Assembly (NCBI GenBank): GCA_905197045.1 | Contig: CAJJXG010000006.1 | Span: forward strand, 9,555-73,554 | From: an uncultured Bacillales bacterium | GTDB lineage: Bacteria; Bacillota_I; Bacilli_A; RFN20; CAG-826 | DNA: 64,000 bases | Direction of reading: 5' to 3' | Shown: positions 1-45,427 of the stretch, in pieces | Layout: each line of letters begins with the position of its first letter | How positions within the stretch are numbered: position 1 is the first letter of the stretch | Notes under the pieces: model-generated | Database searches by the model: none | Seen by the model: only the letters and a program-made list of their open reading frames with translations | Told to the model about the DNA's origin: nothing | Program-made: the position numbers and the translations under genes

Positions 1-174
1 TTCTAGACCAGACATAATTAAAGCTTTTGAAGCAAAATTAGGAGAAGAAATATAAAAAGCATCGTTTTTAAAATAATAAGTTATTCGATTGCTCCTTAAG
101 CCCTTGTATTTAATATAGACATTGTATCTTTTCCCTTCTATTTCATAATAACAAAACAAAGAATATTTCTGCAT
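1..174 (-). CDS. partial CDS (N-terminal part only, runs off the left edge); hypothetical, possibly a DUF45/YgjP-like metallopeptidase N-terminus
   Basis: Manual minus-strand translation from the ATG at ~172-174 is open for 58 codons to the window edge: MQKYSLFCYYEIEGKRYNVYIKYKGLRSNRITYYFKNDAFYISSPNFASKALIMSGLE. The pattern of alternating beta-strand residues followed by 'ISSP' resembles DUF45 N-termini. No clear SD. Absent from the ORF track because it is truncated. Confidence 0.35.
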   Translation of the reverse strand, partial: MQKYSLFCYYEIEGKRYNVYIKYKGLRSNRITYYFKNDAFYISSPNFASKALIMSGLE

Positions 175-23962: not shown

Positions 23963-24141
23963 TTGCATATTTTTATAGCGACTTTTTGAATGATTTGCAT
24001 TTTTTTCAAGCGAGTTTTTAAGAACTTTGCATATTTTTATAGCGACTTTTTAAGTTATTTGCATATTTTTATAGCGACTTTTTGAATGATTTGCATTTTT
24101 TTCAAGCGAGTTTTTAAGACTTTTACATATTTTTGTAGTGC
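23963..24141. repeat. tandem array of six 31-33-bp units (pattern A-B-A'-A-B-A'')
   Basis: Unit A is TTGCATATTTTTATAGCGACTTTTTGAATGA and unit B is TTTGCATTTTTTTCAAGCGAGTTTTTAAGAAC. The A+B pair (~62 bp) recurs almost exactly 96 bp later (23963-24025 vs 24059-24120). The last unit is degenerate. Confidence 0.85.
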
Positions 24142-24585
24142 AAAATGAGGATTCTAAGAATTATACTGTTGAAGCATGTCTGAAAACATTAAGTAGAATT
24201 GAGGCAACAAGGAATCCTTCAACCAATGAATACAACGTATTGTATGAATTAACTAAACACCAAAAAGAGATATTAAATTGCCTTGGATTAACTCAAAAAA
24301 TAGTTAATAAAACATATAAATACTGATTTAGTTATCAAAATCCTAAAAGTTTAGGACATAAATAACCTCACTTTTTAGCCACGATACCACGATAAATTTT
24401 AAAGTATCTAAAAATGTTGTTAACTGTTTCGGATATAAAAAATACGATGGTTATCGCATGTTTGCCTGTACGTATTTTCAAGGCTCTAAGGATTAATCGT
24501 GGCTTTTTCTAAACAAGGGACTGACATTCCCCCAAAAGTATTATAAATTAATATGAGATACGTCAAAACAAGGGAGGTAAGACCT

Positions 24586-25614
24586 ATGAATCCGTATTTT
24601 ATCATCAGCAATGCAAAGACCTTTGCTTTTTCCGCAGAAAATCCCACAGGAACCAGAGCAGGCGGTTCCAGAGGAGGGGATTGCACCAAGCTTCGTCCAA
24701 CCGTGACGATTCACGCAGGGGAGACTGTGACACTGGTGGACACCAATGGGCCAGGAATAATCCAGAGCATCTGGTTTACCGGCTACGTTGGACACAGCTT
24801 TGTGCTCCGCATTTACTGGGACAACTGCGAATATCCTTCTGTGGAAGCTCCCATTTCCGCATTTTTCGGGACAGCATACGATGAGAATTTTGTGGACAGG
24901 GATGGAAAATATGCGGTGCTCAATTCTGCAAAGATCCTAGTGGCTCCCGGACGAGGACTGAGCTGTTACTGGGAGATGCCTTTCAAAAAGCACTGCCGAA
25001 TCACCATGGAAAACCGCGGTGAAAAGGATCAGGACCTGTACTATATCATCACCGGCTGCCACTGTGAGGTGCCCGACGAGATCGGGTATTTCCATGCTTC
25101 CTACCGTCAGGAGCATCCCGTTCAGAAGGGACGTTCCTACACCATCATCGACGGCATTCAGGGAAAAGGCCAGTTCGTGGGCGTAACCCTGGCCACCGGA
25201 ATAAACGGAAACAACACCTGTTGGGTGGAGGGAGAAGCCAGAATGTACATAGACGATGACAAATATCCTTCCATTCACTATACAGGCACAGAGGATTATT
25301 TCGGCGGCTCCTACGGCTTTGGAAATGATGTTCAAATCAAATCCTATCAGACTTACAGCGGCCTTTACAGCGGAATGTACGCCATCTACGGTAATAACCG
25401 TGAATTTTACAACGGCCAGCAGAGATTTCTGCTATACCGCTTCCACATCGCTGACCCGATTCATTTTGAGACCAAATTCCGCATGACCCTGGACAATCTG
25501 GGATGGACCGGGCCACGATACGATGACTATACTTCCTGCGCATACTGGTATCAGACGCTGCCATCCGCACCACTGAAACCACTGCCGTCTGACAAAGAGA
25601 TGATTATGAAGTGA
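24586..25614 (+). CDS. DUF2961 / glycoside hydrolase family 172-like protein on a GC-rich foreign cassette
   Basis: The track ORF starts at 24553. The ATG at 24586 (MNPYFIISN...) has SD GGGAGG 7 nt upstream. DUF2961 hallmarks: GPGIIQSIWFT, WEMPFKKHCRITMEN, EGEARMYIDDDKYPSIHYTGTEDYFGG. G+C is visibly above 50%, against below 30% in the flanks. Confidence 0.85.
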   Translation: MNPYFIISNAKTFAFSAENPTGTRAGGSRGGDCTKLRPTVTIHAGETVTLVDTNGPGIIQSIWFTGYVGHSFVLRIYWDNCEYPSVEAPISAFFGTAYDENFVDRDGKYAVLNSAKILVAPGRGLSCYWEMPFKKHCRITMENRGEKDQDLYYIITGCHCEVPDEIGYFHASYRQEHPVQKGRSYTIIDGIQGKGQFVGVTLATGINGNNTCWVEGEARMYIDDDKYPSIHYTGTEDYFGGSYGFGNDVQIKSYQTYSGLYSGMYAIYGNNREFYNGQQRFLLYRFHIADPIHFETKFRMTLDNLGWTGPRYDDYTSCAYWYQTLPSAPLKPLPSDKEMIMK

Positions 25615-25744: not shown

Positions 25745-27013
25745 TCAAGGTTTTAAGCAGCCTAATGGGACTACATAAACGTCATCATCTCTTTTGTAGG
25801 CATATTTATTTTTTGTAATAACCATTAAGTATGCTGGCTGCTCAATTAAATCGTCTTTAATCTTTTTTAAATTACTGGCAGCTTCTTCTATATCGTCATC
25901 ATCGCCAAGTTTTATTTCTATTAATCCAAATTCACCATCACGATAGACAATAACTGCATCACATTCTCTACCTAAACTATCACGATAATGGTAAATAGAA
26001 GCATCGATAACCGAAGCGTAAATCTTTAAATCTCTAATTGCAAGCGATTCAAAAAGAAATCCAAATAATTTCATATCTTTAAATATTGATTGAGGCGTAA
26101 GGCCTAAAGAAGCTACAGCAATCGATGAATCAATAAAATATCTGGTATTTTTCGTTCTAATCGCTGTTTTACTTCTTAAATTTGTATTCCGAGCTAAAAC
26201 CTCATCAATTACAAACAATCTTTGAAGTGCTGAAAAATACTTTTCAAACGTTTTTACATCAATATTTGCGTCATTAATAATTGTAGAATCTGGACACTGA
26301 GTACCAATATTTCTTGCATACGAGCGTAATATTTTCTGCGATGTTAAAATATTTTTTCTAATTGCTAAATCTTTAAAAGTAAATAAATCATCTTGGTATA
26401 ATATCTCAAAATAATAATAAGCTTGCGCAAGAGCAACTTTTTCGCTTTCTCCTATAGATAATGGCCGGCCACCTCTACAAATATAAAATGCATAGTCAAA
26501 AATATTTTTCTCACAAGCGCCAAAATTAAAATTTCCATTTTTTAAAGAAGAAAGAGAAATTGTTCCATTACTTTCGCCGCTTTCATAAAGAGAGAGTGTT
26601 CTCATCATTTTTCGACAAATTCGACCATTTCCAGTATGTTCGTCTAATCCGTCTGCACTAATACTTGATGATAATTTATTAGTTACACTTCCTGTTAAAA
26701 TGTATTCGCCAAATTCACAATTTTTGTCAACTTGAATTTTAATTTCATTCCAAATAAAAGGTATAAGTTGCCATTCATCAATTAAAATTGGTTTCTCTCC
26801 TTGATTTAAAAATAAATCAGGAGCATTTTTAGCAAATTCAATAATTTGAGATCTCGTTTTTAAAGGCAGAAGTTCTATTATTGTTTTAGCATGTCTTGCA
26901 CATGTTGTTGTTTTACCACACCATTTTGGGCCAACTACCAATACAGCGCCTTTACTTTCTAAAGCAAATCGTAAAATTTCATCAAATAATCTTGGAATAT
27001 AGGTCTTTTTCAT
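25745..27013 (-). CDS. AAA+ ATPase with C-terminal DUF4143 (COG1373 family)
   Basis: 422 aa. Walker A VVGPKWCGKTT, Walker B ILIDEWQ. The DUF4143-type C-terminus (YHYRDSLGRECDAVIVYRDGEFGLIEIKLG) looks like a PD-(D/E)xK fold. Paralog of 43677..44972. Confidence 0.85.
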   Translation of the reverse strand: MKKTYIPRLFDEILRFALESKGAVLVVGPKWCGKTTTCARHAKTIIELLPLKTRSQIIEFAKNAPDLFLNQGEKPILIDEWQLIPFIWNEIKIQVDKNCEFGEYILTGSVTNKLSSSISADGLDEHTGNGRICRKMMRTLSLYESGESNGTISLSSLKNGNFNFGACEKNIFDYAFYICRGGRPLSIGESEKVALAQAYYYFEILYQDDLFTFKDLAIRKNILTSQKILRSYARNIGTQCPDSTIINDANIDVKTFEKYFSALQRLFVIDEVLARNTNLRSKTAIRTKNTRYFIDSSIAVASLGLTPQSIFKDMKLFGFLFESLAIRDLKIYASVIDASIYHYRDSLGRECDAVIVYRDGEFGLIEIKLGDDDDIEEAASNLKKIKDDLIEQPAYLMVITKNKYAYKRDDDVYVVPLGCLKP

Positions 27014-27052
27014 ATTGCTAGTTTATCATTTAAAAAAACAATTAACAATAAA

Positions 27053-27167
27053 AATCCCAAAAATATTAGTAAAATAATCCCAAATTTATGAGTAAATTAA
27101 TCCCATAAATATTATTAAATTAATCCCAGAAATGTTAGTAAAATAATCCCAAAAATATTAGTAAAAA
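27053..27167. repeat. five tandem 23-bp direct repeats (iteron-like) upstream of the COG1373 ATPase
   Basis: AATCCCAAAAATATTAGTAAAAT / AATCCCAAATTTATGAGTAAATT / AATCCCATAAATATTATTAAATT / AATCCCAGAAATGTTAGTAAAAT / AATCCCAAAAATATTAGTAAAAA. The period is exactly 23 bp and the array starts ~40 bp upstream of the ATPase start codon. Confidence 0.9.
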
Positions 27168-27333
27168 ATCAAAAGTAGTTAGTTCTTAAAGGTAATTCAA
27201 CAATGATCGTTTTCGATATAAAATTCACTTAGTTAAAATAGTAAAACTAATAGATAGCTATTTAAATTAGCCTAATATAGCGCCTAGATTATAATCGTGT
27301 TTTACTTAAAAAGCCTGCAAATCAAAAAGTTTT

Positions 27334-42161: not shown

Positions 42162-43511
42162 ATGATTATTGGAAGAGAAACAGAAACCATCGAATTCAAA
42201 AAAAGTACCAGCGAATTAAAAGAGGCGCTTCAATCCATATCTGCTATTTTAAACAAGCATCAACATGGCGTTATTTATTTTGGTGTAAAAGACAATGGCG
42301 AAGTCGTAGGACAAAAAATTGAAAAAGATACATTAAGAGATATCTCAAATAAAATAAGAGAACAAATCAAACCAGAGTGTTTCTATAACGTTGAAAAGAG
42401 AAACGACGATGAGAATAACACTTTTATAGAAGTATCTTTTAGTGGAGAAAGAATTCCATATTCAGCTAATGGTAAATTTTATTTAAGATTTTCAGATCAA
42501 GATCGATTAATGACAAATGAGGAACTTGAAAAATTTTTTCTTAATATTCAAAAAAATTATTCTATATGGGAGAACGAAGATTCTTTTACTAGTATAAACG
42601 ATATAGATGAAGCTTTACTTGAAAAGATGATTAATAAAGGTTACGAAAACAAACGACTTCATTTTAAATATACTAATTCCTATGAAGTTTTAAAAAAGTT
42701 AGGATTAATTGCTAAAGGTAACCAAAACCTCAATAATGCAGGTAACGTATTATTTTCATCCTTAAATCCAATAACTCTTAAATTAGCCACTTTTGCGTCA
42801 GAAACAAAAGAAACATTTTTAAAACTTGAATATTTTGAAGGTAATATCTTCACTTGTATTGAAAAAGGAATTTCTTATGTTTTAAACGCAATAAATTGGA
42901 ACGTAACTTTAGATGGTTCACCTTTGAGAAAAGAAACTCCAGAGATTCCTAAAGAAGCATTAAGAGAGATTATAGTTAACGCTTTTAGTCATGCTCGTTA
43001 TAGAAGTTCGACTACTTTTGAAATTGATGTTTTTAAAGACCGTGTAACAATATATAGTCCTGGCTACTTTCCATTAGGATACACTCCTGAAGATTTTGCA
43101 TACAACCATGAAGAACCAATTATGTTGAATCCTAAGATTATTCACGTTTTATTTAAAACGTGTCAGATTGAATCTTTTGGTTATGGATTTGAAACAACTT
43201 TTAAATTATGTAAAGAATTTTCGGTACCATATAAGTACGAGAACACAAAATCAGGCTTTAAATTTATTTTTTATAGACCTTTATCATTAAAATATTCAAC
43301 TTTTGATTTAAACGATACTGAAACCAAAGTTTTAAGGCAAATTATAAAAAATTCAACAATTAAAATTAAAGAAATAGCCGCTAATATCAATAAAAGTGAG
43401 AAAACAGTATCACGTGCTCTTAAAAAATTAAAAGAAGAAAACTTTATATATCGTGAAGGCGATGATTTTAGAGGTGAATGGATTGTTAATAAGGATTTAT
43501 ATAAAAAATAA
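42162..43511 (+). CDS. AlbA_2 (Schlafen-like) + HATPase_c_4 + C-terminal wHTH protein (COG2865 family, often annotated as a 'RecG-like putative DNA-binding protein')
   Basis: 449 aa. The N-terminus GRETETIEFKKSTSELKEALQSISAILNKHQHGVIYFGVKDNGEVVGQ is the AlbA_2 signature. The central REIIVNAFSHARY motif matches HATPase_c_4. The C-terminus is an HTH (TIKIKEIAANINKSEKTVSRALKKLKEENFI). Confidence 0.8.
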   Translation: MIIGRETETIEFKKSTSELKEALQSISAILNKHQHGVIYFGVKDNGEVVGQKIEKDTLRDISNKIREQIKPECFYNVEKRNDDENNTFIEVSFSGERIPYSANGKFYLRFSDQDRLMTNEELEKFFLNIQKNYSIWENEDSFTSINDIDEALLEKMINKGYENKRLHFKYTNSYEVLKKLGLIAKGNQNLNNAGNVLFSSLNPITLKLATFASETKETFLKLEYFEGNIFTCIEKGISYVLNAINWNVTLDGSPLRKETPEIPKEALREIIVNAFSHARYRSSTTFEIDVFKDRVTIYSPGYFPLGYTPEDFAYNHEEPIMLNPKIIHVLFKTCQIESFGYGFETTFKLCKEFSVPYKYENTKSGFKFIFYRPLSLKYSTFDLNDTETKVLRQIIKNSTIKIKEIAANINKSEKTVSRALKKLKEENFIYREGDDFRGEWIVNKDLYKK

Positions 43512-43541: not shown

Positions 43542-43653
43542 CTTAAAAAAATACGCATTTAATCGTAATTTTTGACATTACTACTTACCTCTAGGACATG
43601 GTCATGGACATAATTAATGTCTTAGACATATTTGAAAATGTCTAAGACATTTT
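43542..43653. repeat. right copy (R2) of the ~110-bp direct repeat
   Basis: CTTAAAAAAATACGCATTTAATCGTAATTTTTGACATTA...CTCTAGGACATGGTCATGGACATAATTAATGTCTTAGACATATTTGAAAATGTCTAAGACATTTT. It lies between two convergent genes. The TTGACA -35 of R1 is replaced here by TAAGACA. Confidence 0.85.
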
Positions 43654-43676
43654 AATGTTAAATTAAGATGCTAAAT

Positions 43677-44972
43677 TCAAGGTCTTAAACAATTAATTGG
43701 AATAATAAAGATACCTTCTTCGTTTTTATAGCAAGCTCCACTTGAAGTAATAATTGCTTTAAATTTAGGAAGTTTTGCTTTTGCTCGAACTAATTTGTCT
43801 TCAAATCTAGTAAGAGATCTAATTCCATCTTGAATATTTTCAGGACTATTAATTTTAACTTCTATCGCACCGAATTCACCATTTGGTAATTGAACAATTA
43901 TGTCGACTTCTTGACCGCTGCTATCCCTATAATGTTTTAAACTAGCGCCAATACTTTCAGCATAAACTGAGACATCTCTTACAACAAAGTCTTCAAAGAA
44001 AAGACCAAAAGATTTAATATCATTTAATAAATCATCAGGTTTAATATTAAGTGCTTCGCAAGCAATAGATGTATCAATAAAATGTCTAGTCGGAGCACAC
44101 CTTACTGCTACCGAAGATCTTAAATTGATGTTATATGAAGGCATATCATATATTAAAAATAACTTTTTCAATATAGTCTCATAATCATTAAAAGTGTTTT
44201 CGTCTAATTTGCTTCTTTCGCCAGATTCTAAAATATCATTTATCATGGTAGTTTTTTTGGCTTGTGTAGATATGTTACGAGCATAGGATTTTAAAATCAG
44301 TTTTAATAAATCTATATTTTTATTCTTGTAAAAGTCATTATATTCGTTATTCTCTCTAAATAAACCTGAATAATAATTGTCTGTAATTATCAAAGAAATG
44401 CTTTTTTCTGAACAAACGGATAAAGGCCAACCGCCACGGCAAATTAAAAAGGCAATATCAAATAAAGTAATTGGATTATCGTTTTCAAGCAAAGTTTTGA
44501 AATTATCTCCACCATGAAACAAATCTTCTATTGATACAATGCCAAAAGATTCTTCTGACTCATAAAGAGTGAATGGCTTTATATTTAAATCGACTATTCT
44601 TCCAGCACCAGAATGTAATATCTCTGAACTATTAAGTGGCATGGTGCTACCTGTTGTTAAATACTTTCCAAAAACATATTCATCATCCAAATCTTTTTTA
44701 ATTTGATTCCACACATCTGGACACCTTTGCCATTCATCAATTAAATGTGGTTTATCGCCTTCTATAGCCAATCTAGGATTTCCTTTGATAACCATTAATG
44801 TATTATTATCGCTTAAATAAGTTATCGATTTAGCATATCTTTTGCATAATGTTGTTTTGCCTGAAAATTTTGGACCATTAACTAACACACATCCAGAAGT
44901 TTTCATTTTAAGTTCAAGAACTTTTTCAATAATTCTATTTTTATATAAGCCATCTTTAATCATCATATCCAT
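43677..44972 (-). CDS. AAA+ ATPase with C-terminal DUF4143 (COG1373 family), paralog 2
   Basis: The track ORF (442 aa) starts at a TTG at 45005. The in-frame ATG at 44972 (MDMMIKDGLYKNR...) aligns better with paralog 1. Walker A VNGPKFSGKTT, Walker B HLIDEWQ. C-terminus HYRDSSGQEVDIIVQLPNGEFGAIEVK. Both paralogs end in a ...P[LI][GN]CL[KR]P tail. Confidence 0.85.
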   Translation of the reverse strand: MDMMIKDGLYKNRIIEKVLELKMKTSGCVLVNGPKFSGKTTLCKRYAKSITYLSDNNTLMVIKGNPRLAIEGDKPHLIDEWQRCPDVWNQIKKDLDDEYVFGKYLTTGSTMPLNSSEILHSGAGRIVDLNIKPFTLYESEESFGIVSIEDLFHGGDNFKTLLENDNPITLFDIAFLICRGGWPLSVCSEKSISLIITDNYYSGLFRENNEYNDFYKNKNIDLLKLILKSYARNISTQAKKTTMINDILESGERSKLDENTFNDYETILKKLFLIYDMPSYNINLRSSVAVRCAPTRHFIDTSIACEALNIKPDDLLNDIKSFGLFFEDFVVRDVSVYAESIGASLKHYRDSSGQEVDIIVQLPNGEFGAIEVKINSPENIQDGIRSLTRFEDKLVRAKAKLPKFKAIITSSGACYKNEEGIFIIPINCLRP

Positions 44973-45005
44973 ATTATAAATATCTATTTGCTTAAAAACA
45001 ATCAA

Positions 45006-45073
45006 ATTCAGTGTTTTGAAAGTTTTAATTCAGTGTTTTGAAAGATTATGATTCAGTGTTTTGAAAAGTAATA
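45006..45073. repeat. three tandem 22-23-bp direct repeats, proximal cluster upstream of COG1373 paralog 2
   Basis: ATTCAGTGTTTTGAAAGTTTTA / ATTCAGTGTTTTGAAAGATTATG / ATTCAGTGTTTTGAAAAGTAAT. The core TTCAGTGTTTTGAA contains the inverted half-sites TTCA-N6-TGAA. Confidence 0.9.
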
Positions 45074-45192
45074 ACAAGTACTAAAAATTTGGGATTAAAC
45101 TATAAAAATATTGTAAAAAAGTAGATTTTATAACGATTTTACTATCTTTGATAAAGCAAATACTTAATTTTCTGAATTAAATGCTTATTCAT

Positions 45193-45261
45193 TTTCAGTG
45201 TTTTGAAATGTTTTGTTTCAGTGTTTTGAAAGGTTTTAATTCAGTGTTTTGAAAATTATTA
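45193..45261. repeat. three further tandem copies of the same 23-bp repeat, distal cluster
   Basis: TTTCAGTGTTTTGAAATGTTTTG / TTTCAGTGTTTTGAAAGGTTTTA / ATTCAGTGTTTTGAAAATTATTA. Separated from the proximal cluster by ~120 bp of unique AT-rich DNA. Confidence 0.9.
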
Positions 45262-45427
45262 TTTCTAGATCTTAAATTAGACTAAACCGCTTTTAATTAG
45301 TATCATTTATAAATGTTCATTTTAATTATGGCTATAATCTTCTGATTCTATTTCTCATTATTTTTCTATAAAAATTTACAATTCATTCTTTTACAAGAGA
45401 GAAGGTAATTTATAAAATAATAAAGAT

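Follow-up and report, generated by a model that had tools for sequence, protein, structure and literature searches.

What is the role of five tandem repeats that stand, at an exact period, just before the start codon of an ATPase gene? The question is raised by positions 27053-27167 of a 64,000-nucleotide stretch of DNA from an uncultured Bacillales bacterium (contig CAJJXG010000006.1; hereafter “the window”). The gene in question, which we call W1, occupies 25745..27013 on the minus strand and encodes 422 amino acids with AAA_14 and DUF4143 domains; a paralog in the same window, W2, has repeats of its own. In this report, we computed the arrays, their family-wide conservation, their orientation and period, the pattern of variation within and between arrays, the covariation of protein residues with bases, and the register of the arrays relative to promoters. 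The array word was found to change with two residues of the encoded protein, which makes it most likely that this protein docks on the array of its own gene. We therefore favor, as the probable explanation, that the array serves the adjacent ORC/Cdc6-like ATPase-nuclease as a private site for docking and assembly, and that this docking is coupled to autoregulation of the gene.

On the plus strand, 27053-27167 reads as five contiguous head-to-tail units of 23 bp each: AATCCCAAAAATATTAGTAAAAT, AATCCCAAATTTATGAGTAAATT, AATCCCATAAATATTATTAAATT, AATCCCAGAAATGTTAGTAAAAT and AATCCCAAAAATATTAGTAAAAA. Tandem Repeats Finder (TRF) reports the same feature at 27053-27170, with a period of 23, 5.2 copies, 83% matches and a score of 166. 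Both direct reading and TRF thus bear out the five exact-period repeats described in a first-pass annotation of the window. The start, placed there at about 40 bp upstream of the start codon, lies 39 bp upstream of the gene, whose ATG is at 27013. The first and last copies differ only at the final base, as had been noted, but the inner copies depart from copy 1 at four, three and two positions rather than at four to six. The proposal that the repeats present the same face of the helix does not hold: a pitch of 23 bp is 2.19 helical turns, so neighboring sites are turned by about 70 degrees and are not strictly on one face. With three mismatches or fewer allowed, the repeat pattern has 4 matches in the 64-kb window, all within the array, where shuffles lead one to expect 0.03. 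Read on the coding (minus) strand, with the register taken from a family-wide alignment of units, each W1 unit consists of a 12-bp box (consensus ATTTTTGGGATT) and an 11-bp A/T-rich spacer (ATTTTACTAAT). In plus-strand coordinates, the boxes lie at 27053-27064 (promoter-proximal), 27076-27087, 27099-27110, 27122-27133 and 27145-27156.

The array is retained in orthologs of W1. The locus L002, whose protein is 97% identical in amino-acid sequence, has five units, and L001 (87% identical) has four, with a changed word. Variation in copy number among strains was examined against these 97% and 87% orthologs. Three of the four units in L001 carry the same four substitutions (TTTTACTCACATTTTCAGGATT vs. 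TTTTACTAATATTTTTGGGATT), and the variant units of L002 are ordered differently from those of W1; together, these facts indicate that arrays change in concert. The exact W1 protein was found only in human-gut assemblies and in the same neighborhood, the one contig shown being identical over the compared stretch. Among GTDB representatives, the best match is Candidatus Onthovivens, at 64%.

The presence of an array is a trait of the family. Our survey took in 80 genome, 80 metagenome, 26 viral-contig and 14 plasmid loci (the last with distant homologs), plus the orthologs of W1 and W2; the sample is bacterial, with no archaeal locus among those retrieved. An array was called when the last 250 bp upstream of a gene held three 10-mers at constant spacing with at least 7 of 10 positions identical. 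Arrays were so detected before 158 of 198 homologous genes and in 1 of 200 shuffled upstream controls. The possibility that other COG1373 genes lack arrays was thus not borne out. The spacing is 23 bp in 148 of the positive genes and 22 bp in 10, with no other value. The 198 genes come from Firmicutes, Bacteroidota, Spirochaetes, Actinobacteria and Fibrobacteres, in addition to proteobacterial plasmids (Bacilli, Clostridia, Bacteroidales, Treponema, Coriobacteriia, Atopobium and Hallerella are all represented among the hosts), and the positive genes belong to phyla that range from 28% to more than 60% in G+C content. TRF, applied to the first 82 loci, found a period-23 array in about 60 of them, its end lying some 20-60 bp from the start codon. 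Within 350 bp upstream of the gene in these loci, 61 of 70 tandem repeats have a period of 23, compared with 6 of 47 in the other 509 kb, and several of those six stand before a second paralog. Further, the ATPase gene is the only constant neighbor of the arrays.

More distant relatives have arrays with other periods. Among the proteobacterial plasmid homologs (24-29% identity), 10 of 14 have boxes spaced at 22 bp (shuffle p <= 0.02). These are L166, L168, L170-L174 and L176-L178, from plasmids of Agrobacterium, Rhizobium, sphingomonads and Roseobacter, and each has three boxes of the TTCCAAT or TTTCAATNGG type exactly 22 bp apart. Several of the plasmid homologs adjoin genes for strawberry-notch-like helicases or methylase-helicases and DUF1173. 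A remote DUF4143 clade, with proteins of about 450 amino acids whose BLASTP matches to W1 are insignificant, has GTTGGAAAA boxes at a spacing of 33 bp in five of six loci, with three or four copies of GTTGGAAAA[G/T]GT upstream of the gene. Loci with such boxes are L007 (1053-1130), where the clade was first noticed as a neighboring gene, L209, L211, L213 and L215. The period is thus specific to the clade (22, 23 or 33 bp), and the principle is general.

The anatomy of the units was studied by circularly aligning them, on the coding strand, into one template of 23 positions. Positions 1-12 form the box, A-[A/T]-N4-[C/G][C/G]-G-A-[A/T]-T; positions 13-20 are A/T-rich; and positions 21-23 are often GCC. 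Between arrays, positions 3-9 hold 0.05-0.7 bit, yet the copies within an array agree at 86-96% there. Within-array conservation of the spacer is 67-85%, and just 67-77% at positions 17-21. A core that is nearly uninformative between arrays and conserved within them is what marks a binding site with a specificity peculiar to its locus. The geometry is rigid: neighboring units are spaced at exactly 23 bp in 192 of 200 cases, and in 43 of 46 independent arrays, none of which had gone into the template, the units keep one orientation with respect to the gene. An array has 3-7 copies (in one case 12), the median being 4.

The words themselves are diverse, with 97 distinct 7-base cores among 149 arrays. 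They also differ between paralogs. The W1 and W2 words are different within the window, and in six pairs of paralogs from the same genome or locus the boxes always differ, matching at 5-8 of 12 positions (6.1 for random pairs). Such private words would insulate the paralogs in one cell from cross-talk. It had been considered that the same words might be scattered at unrelated loci; apart from a single W1-type box, none was found elsewhere in the window, and extra copies are rare in the related loci.

The protein encoded beside the array belongs to a known family. Pfam assigns AAA_14 (1.5e-11 for W1, 1.1e-13 for W2, both above the curated cut-off) and DUF4143 (3.8e-28 and 9.7e-27), and both proteins match the PADLOC profile PDLC04790 of PDC-S01 over their full length (6.7e-53 and 5.9e-58). 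At 50% identity, this profile matches 13,635 clusters. DUF4143 has been classed in the PD-(D/E)XK nuclease superfamily, and in published accounts COG1373/PDC-S01 joins an ATPase to a PD-(D/E)XK domain and is treated as a single-gene system. PDC-S01 is reported to rank fourth in frequency among defense candidates across prokaryotes and to be the single locus met most often in rumen genomes. Its anti-phage validation is termed “pending” in the literature, the source preprint listing 145 untested candidates, and the family is not discussed in the PADLOC candidate preprint. In the literature that we searched (open-access full text), no description was found of repeats, a cis element, DNA specificity or autoregulation for COG1373, DUF4143 or PDC-S01. 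The gene family is known; the upstream arrays with private words are absent from that literature.

An AlphaFold2 model of the W1 protein (predicted local distance difference test score 90.6, predicted template-modeling score 0.90) shows an AAA+ domain at about residues 1-170, a helical lid (171-207), a winged helix (222-293) and a PD-(D/E)XK nuclease alpha/beta domain (296-422). The third, or recognition, helix of the winged helix spans 253-265, and the wing 269-293. The Walker A motif, GPKxxGK, is invariant, as are D352, E366 and K368, the PD-(D/E)XK catalytic motif, across 80 sequences. Against the Protein Data Bank (PDB), Foldseek pairs the N-terminal part with Orc1/Cdc6 on origin DNA (2qby_A; probability 0.99, template-modeling (TM) score 0.27-0.29) and with eukaryotic ORC subunits, and the C-terminal part with Card1/Cdn1 nucleases. 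Global TM-scores are low throughout (0.2-0.3), and the likeness to Orc1/Cdc6 is therefore one of architecture, not a demonstrated relationship. A sequence search of PDB chains returned noise only, with neither a solved structure nor a named relative.

Covariation between the residues of the protein and the bases of its array was sought in an unbiased scan. We calculated mutual information with average-product correction for 411 protein columns and 23 DNA positions (9,453 pairs), at first for 109 genes with their arrays and later for 144 non-redundant ones. In the larger run, the five top pairs involve residue 254 (positions 8, 7 and 9) and residue 346 (positions 22 and 21). The z-scores of the five are 15, 14, 13, 12 and 9, residue 254 having the strongest covariation and residue 346 the second strongest, after which there is a sharp drop, and permutations never came near the observed values. 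The winged helix supplied 10 of the 16 top pairs in the first run, with 47 of 412 columns, and 10 of the 25 top pairs in the larger one. R344 and Y292 also pair with position 23.

These pairings amount to simple rules. At bases 7-9, D254 goes with CCG (34 of 40), K254 with GGN (26 of 28), E254 with CGG (16 of 32) and N254 with CAC-type cores. At bases 21-23, K346 goes with GCC (65 of 78), and S, A, G or N at this position with other triplets. Lysine with guanine, and aspartate or glutamate with cytosine, are classical major-groove pairings. Residue 254 stands just before a conserved Thr where helix 3 begins, and inspection of winged-helix segments side by side with the boxes had first suggested that it tracks the box core. 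W1 obeys both rules. Its K254 (codon 26252..26254, minus strand), in the first turn of the recognition helix, goes with GGG, and its S346 (codon 25976..25978, minus strand), in the beta1-beta2 hairpin of the nuclease domain beside D345, E350 and D352, goes with AAT, as expected of a residue other than K with a triplet other than GCC.

On a tree from which these regions were left out, residue 254 switches class at least 38 times. Indeed, proteins that are 82-87% identical outside the winged helix can show both a switched residue and a switched word, e.g. L048 (D, CCG) and L099 (E, CGG), L124 and L156, and L085 and L012. Thus, the signal does not come from one or two clades. The proposals of the first-pass annotation, that a sequence-specific protein binds the repeats cooperatively and that the ATPases themselves recognize DNA in a paralog-specific way, gain strong, though indirect, support from the covariation. 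The wing was also considered as the element of specificity, and was rejected because it is nearly invariant across loci that have different words. Positions 21-23 stand upstream of the next box, 9-10 bp from its positions 7-9, which points to a likely footprint for one protomer of GCC-AA-N4-CCG-AAT: the nuclease hairpin and the winged helix would read two adjacent major grooves, and an 8-bp A/T linker would come after these.

The same evidence bears on another explanation, namely that the repeats are bound by a host factor encoded in trans, or are generic intergenic repeats or minisatellites made by slippage. AT-rich genomes are rich in short tandem repeats (TRF lists 62 rows). A generic repeat would not be expected, however, to have a period of 22 or 23 bp in all of the positive genes across phyla of such different base composition, nor a fixed orientation and distance to one gene. 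Further, the words are private, covary with two residues of the adjacent protein and do not recur elsewhere in the window. Given a period that is constant from phylum to phylum, and given the covariation, a trans-acting factor or minisatellite is in effect excluded, and we hold both to be highly improbable.

The position of the array suggests that docking affects the expression of the gene. A generic promoter scan was uninformative in this AT-rich window, and the conserved register was used instead. Before W1, a putative sigma-70-type promoter can be read at 27020..27048 (minus strand), with a -35 element TTGTTA (27048-27043), a 17-nt spacer and a TG-extended -10 element TAAACT (27025-27020). 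Because it matches only 8 of 12 positions, the generic scan omitted it. TTGTTA begins 4 nt after the last box, the predicted -10 ends 6 nt before the ATG, and the stretch is kept in L001 and L002. The same register recurs in the family: where a TTGnnn-16..18-TAnnnT motif is found (47 loci), it starts 3-5 nt after the last box in 31 and exactly 4 nt after it in 21. In Bacteroidota, the last box is followed after 13-16 nt by a TAnnTTTG element, which lies one unit farther off if that box is degenerate. The promoter-proximal unit differs from the internal ones. Its box is kept in 87 of 111 cases, but the family triplet at positions 21-23 is present in 28 of 111, vs. 263 of 352 internal units, and TTG is gained at positions 16-18 in 34 of 111, vs. 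30 of 352. With the promoter built into the last unit, occupancy of the array must influence the gene's transcription.

The predicted promoter implies that the W1 mRNA would be leaderless, or nearly so. Neither W1 (27013) nor W2 (44972) has a recognizable Shine-Dalgarno sequence, and -10-like elements lie 4-6 nt from the ATG in both. This suggests leaderless mRNAs for the two genes in this low-GC Bacilli lineage. Many Firmicutes homologs have a GGAGG leader.

Taken as a whole, these results would fit the following mechanism. One protomer would bind per 23-bp unit. Residue 254, in the first turn of the recognition helix, would read bases 7-9 of the 12-bp box, and the nuclease-domain hairpin (344-346) would read bases 21-23, about one helical turn upstream of the box core. 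The near-invariant basic wing would probably lie on the conserved A-tract or A-T linker. The fixed head-to-tail pitch (23 bp; 22 or 33 bp in other clades) could then juxtapose the AAA+ modules of neighboring protomers, and the array would template a DNA-bound oligomer of three to six (up to 12) subunits. Oligomers templated by DNA are familiar from Orc1/Cdc6 on its origin recognition box (ORB) elements, DnaA on DnaA boxes and Rep on iterons. Because the gene's promoter starts at a set distance right behind the last box, or beneath it, occupancy would feed back on transcription of the gene itself. Each gene has its own word, word and reading residues change together, and often, and paralogs would thereby be kept from cross-talk. 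We infer here the physical binding, the ratio of one protomer to a unit, the oligomerization, the sign of the regulation and any link to phage defense.

As to that sign, we lean towards repression, because in Firmicutes the segment that the hairpin would contact is the -35 element, and in Bacteroidota the -33 region lies under the box. Several points weigh against the scheme or parts of it. The box in Firmicutes sits upstream of the -35 rather than over it, the classical position of an activator, which makes the lean towards repression a tentative one. Autoregulation alone leaves unexplained why an intact nuclease domain should read the array and why there should be 3-12 sites at a rigid pitch. 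About 20% of the genes have no array by the detectors used, and L167 (Treponema succinifaciens pTRESU01) has, at about 560-640, a 31-bp perfect palindrome, GACTAATTTGGAGTTAAACTCCAAATTAGTC, in place of direct repeats. Shared ancestry can inflate mutual information, which we controlled only by the average-product correction, the parsimony count and the inspection of close pairs. The reach of residues 254 and 346 to sites 9-10 bp apart is proposed from the covariation. Finally, no binding, footprint or expression data for any member of the family were found in the literature searched.

The second array of the window illustrates how these elements can be broken up. W2 (43677..44972, minus strand; 431 amino acids) has the domain architecture of W1 and is 38% identical to it. 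Upstream of its ATG (44972), exact copies of TTCAGTGTTTTGAAA stand at 45007, 45029 and 45052, with spacings of 22 and 23 bp, the first being 35 bp from the ATG. This proximal sub-array (45005..45074, minus strand) has three units with the coding-strand box AAACACTGAAT[TC]. Beyond a gap of 128 bp, a distal sub-array (45193..45265, minus strand) has three more units of the same word, with TTCAGTGTTTTGAAA at 45194, 45217 and 45240 and a spacing of 23 bp. On the coding strand, a W2 unit is AAAACACTGAAT followed by TAAAACCTTTC. The arrangement of 3 + 3 units, with the insert at 45075-45192, is identical in L084, a 98% ortholog. The first-pass annotation had credited W2 with an equivalent array at the same distance and a completely different word. 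An array at a similar distance and with another word is indeed present, but the two words are not completely unrelated, as both fit the family template (A-[A/T]-N4-[C/G][C/G]G-A-[A/T]-T and an A/T-rich spacer on the coding strand).

Inside the gap of the W2 array, at 45085-45096 on the plus strand, lies a W1-type box in antisense, AAATTTGGGATT, identical to that of W1 unit 4. It is the only such box outside the W1 array and is roughly kept in L084; 0.5 chance matches are expected per window. It could serve cross-regulation between the paralogs, or it could be due to chance. Split or duplicated arrays are also seen elsewhere. In L007, a whole foreign DUF4143 cassette stands between two parts of one array; in L034, arrays are interleaved as A'-B-A-B' and accompanied by an IS256 fragment; and in L082, an array of one word flanks the gene on both sides. 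Arrays may thus be hot spots for insertion or recombination. A mobile cassette was considered and rejected: a second end, or flanking repeat copies, occurred only in the rearranged L034, L082 and L007, and there was no consistent second end, integrase or transposase.

These observations invite another reading, that the array is a programmed substrate of the gene's own nuclease, instead of or besides being an operator. It would be nicked or cut at the GCC/AA junctions, and would act as a cis “kill switch” for abortive infection or as a recombination hot spot that homogenizes, resizes and diversifies the array and captures DNA. The attraction of this reading is that an intact nuclease domain reads DNA and that the arrays are dynamic and sometimes split or duplicated. 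The hairpin residue 346, and also 344, covaries with bases 21-23, the catalytic residues are invariant, and the dynamic arrays include seven identical copies in L017, 11 copies in L045, the reordered units of the 97% ortholog and the concerted changes of word, besides the W2 gap and the rearranged loci just described. On the other hand, the arrays and the synteny flanking them are stable among orthologs of 87-97% identity, ordinary slippage or unequal exchange homogenizes tandem repeats without a dedicated nuclease, and the IS256 fragment could account for the rearrangement of L034. There is no direct evidence of cleavage. We therefore regard this as unlikely. Somewhat related is the notion, which we put forward tentatively and as a doubtful one, that the members of the family are “re-addressable” ATPase-nucleases: one or two residues (254 and 346) would set a private address, of which each gene carries a tandem copy, and on that array an AAA+ oligomer would be assembled and held. 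The oligomer would then either be released or activated on infection, or cut the array, which would be a built-in site for suicide or recombination.

The docking and assembly of a DNA-bound oligomer on tandem sites also brings to mind a minimal replicon or partition module, in which the array would be the iteron origin or centromere of a mobile element and the ORC-like protein its initiator. The geometry is iteron-like, with direct tandem repeats of about 22 bp beside a gene for an initiator-like AAA+/winged-helix protein; the words diversify as do determinants of incompatibility; and the family occurs on plasmids and is listed among genes co-shared horizontally. However, the loci are chromosomal, lie between housekeeping genes (MatE, DUF1848 and ppk) and are syntenic across strains. 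There are several paralogs per genome and even per locus, and across the loci no constant neighbor is a relaxase, an integrase or another replication gene. The repeats are all direct, whereas archaeal ORBs are inverted around an unwinding element, and the array abuts a promoter in fixed register. In viral contigs, the family is rare (26 matches in 2.9 million). We consider a replicon very unlikely. The first-pass annotation had offered both an iteron or centromere and an autoregulatory operator array; the former, in the sense of a replicon, is unsupported, and the latter, as an operator or assembly array, is supported.

The comparison with plasmid iterons and their Rep proteins (e.g. pSC101, F, R6K, P1 and RK2) is nonetheless instructive. 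In both cases, direct repeats at a pitch of about 22 bp stand beside the gene of a winged-helix binder, the site doubles as an autoregulatory element, and word and protein diversify together, as in incompatibility groups. The protein here is an AAA+ ATPase-nuclease fusion, however, and not a WH1-WH2 Rep; no Rep family appears among the Pfam and PDB sequence matches. The loci here are chromosomal, multi-copy and syntenic, and the array is in promoter register without adjacent DnaA boxes, an unwinding element or replicon genes. Of the features of an iteron origin, the tandem direct repeats beside the gene, which in iterons measure 17-22 bp at a pitch of about 22 bp, are thus present, and a Rep-family initiator and a location on an autonomous replicon with a single origin are not.

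Two other systems resemble the present one in part. Orc1/Cdc6 with its ORBs (2qby) offers the best fold match (AAA+, lid and winged helix), has repeated boxes beside the initiator gene, and reads DNA with the winged helix and a second module of the same protomer. Unlike the direct, contiguous units of the arrays, ORBs are few and inverted around an unwinding element, and Orc1/Cdc6 has no nuclease domain and is present in one to few copies per genome. In type II partition systems (ParR-parC) and among tandem-operator autoregulators, direct repeats upstream of an operon, with words specific to the system, are bound cooperatively by its product and overlap its promoter. The arrays studied here likewise abut the predicted promoters of their own genes. 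ParR, in contrast, is a small ribbon-helix-helix protein that works with an actin-like motor on repeats of 10-20 bp, whereas here a 420-residue ATPase-nuclease appears to read with two domains. By analogy, then, the arrangement would work like Rep-iteron, Orc1/Cdc6-ORB, DnaA-box and ParR-parC systems while being a member of none.

A last alternative is that the array acts as RNA, whether as a repeated leader, a small RNA or a guide that spans the units. Some defense systems use repeat-derived RNAs, although nothing specific favors this reading here, and the likeness to CRISPR arrays goes no further than a short repeat array beside a defense-type gene. The units are contiguous, with no unique spacers between them, and there are neither Cas genes nor an RNA signal. 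Rfam had no match in the window apart from one tRNA, and the W1 array folds no better than its shuffles (z = -1.0). Further, the inferred promoter is downstream of the array and directed away from it, and the covariation falls in the DNA-binding elements of the protein. We find a role as RNA scarcely credible, and we return to the docking site as the preferred explanation.

Other features of the window lie near the two genes. Beyond the 3' end of W2, at 43607-43658, are three tandem hairpin-forming palindromes of the GACAT-N-ATGTC type (TRF period 21). They fall within the 165-bp gap between the convergent 3' ends of W2 and the gene at 42162-43511, and could be a bidirectional terminator or another protein site. 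The latter gene (plus strand), which is tail-to-tail with W2, is of the COG2865 type, with Schlafen AlbA_2, HATPase_c_4 and a MarR-like winged helix; this family, too, is of a kind found in defense islands.

On the far side of W1, a further array, with a period of 32 bp, lies at 23963..24138 (minus strand), 55 bp upstream of the DUF1848 gene. It has 5.5 copies and a super-period of 96 bp at 95% identity. In L001 and L002, this array directly follows the W1 ortholog. In L001, it is followed in turn by an open reading frame of 89 residues that is a C-terminal DUF4143/NERD fragment (...EIDFI...LIEVKARSG...) and resembles the last 85 residues of a DUF4143 nuclease domain. From this sequence context, 23963-24138 was probably left behind as an orphan array when a DUF4143 paralog from a clade of longer period decayed. 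Between W1 and this array stands a GH172/DUF2961 gene (24553-25614, plus strand), with a G+C content of 41% in a window of about 28%; the stretch upstream of it, 24330-24550, carries no annotation. The gene is absent from the syntenic L001 and L002, and this absence and its high G+C content make a recent horizontal insertion likely.

An important question for the biology of this family is whether the array is an obligatory part of the system. If the array is part of it, the system includes a cis element that is obligatory and whose protein-DNA code can be read, which would be the first mechanistic handle on these proteins, i.e. on the location, target and control of the protein. It would also give a reason for which heterologous tests might fail if the open reading frame alone is cloned. 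A rule for annotation would follow: an array of 22-, 23- or 33-bp period would mark a live gene, and an orphan array a lost one. If confirmed, the pairs D/CCG, K/GGN and K346/GCC would constitute a compact natural set of orthogonal DNA-binding specificities. If the “re-addressable” reading is true, a “single-gene” defense candidate gains the array as an integral second component, and should the array prove obligatory, the importance of the finding would be considerably larger.

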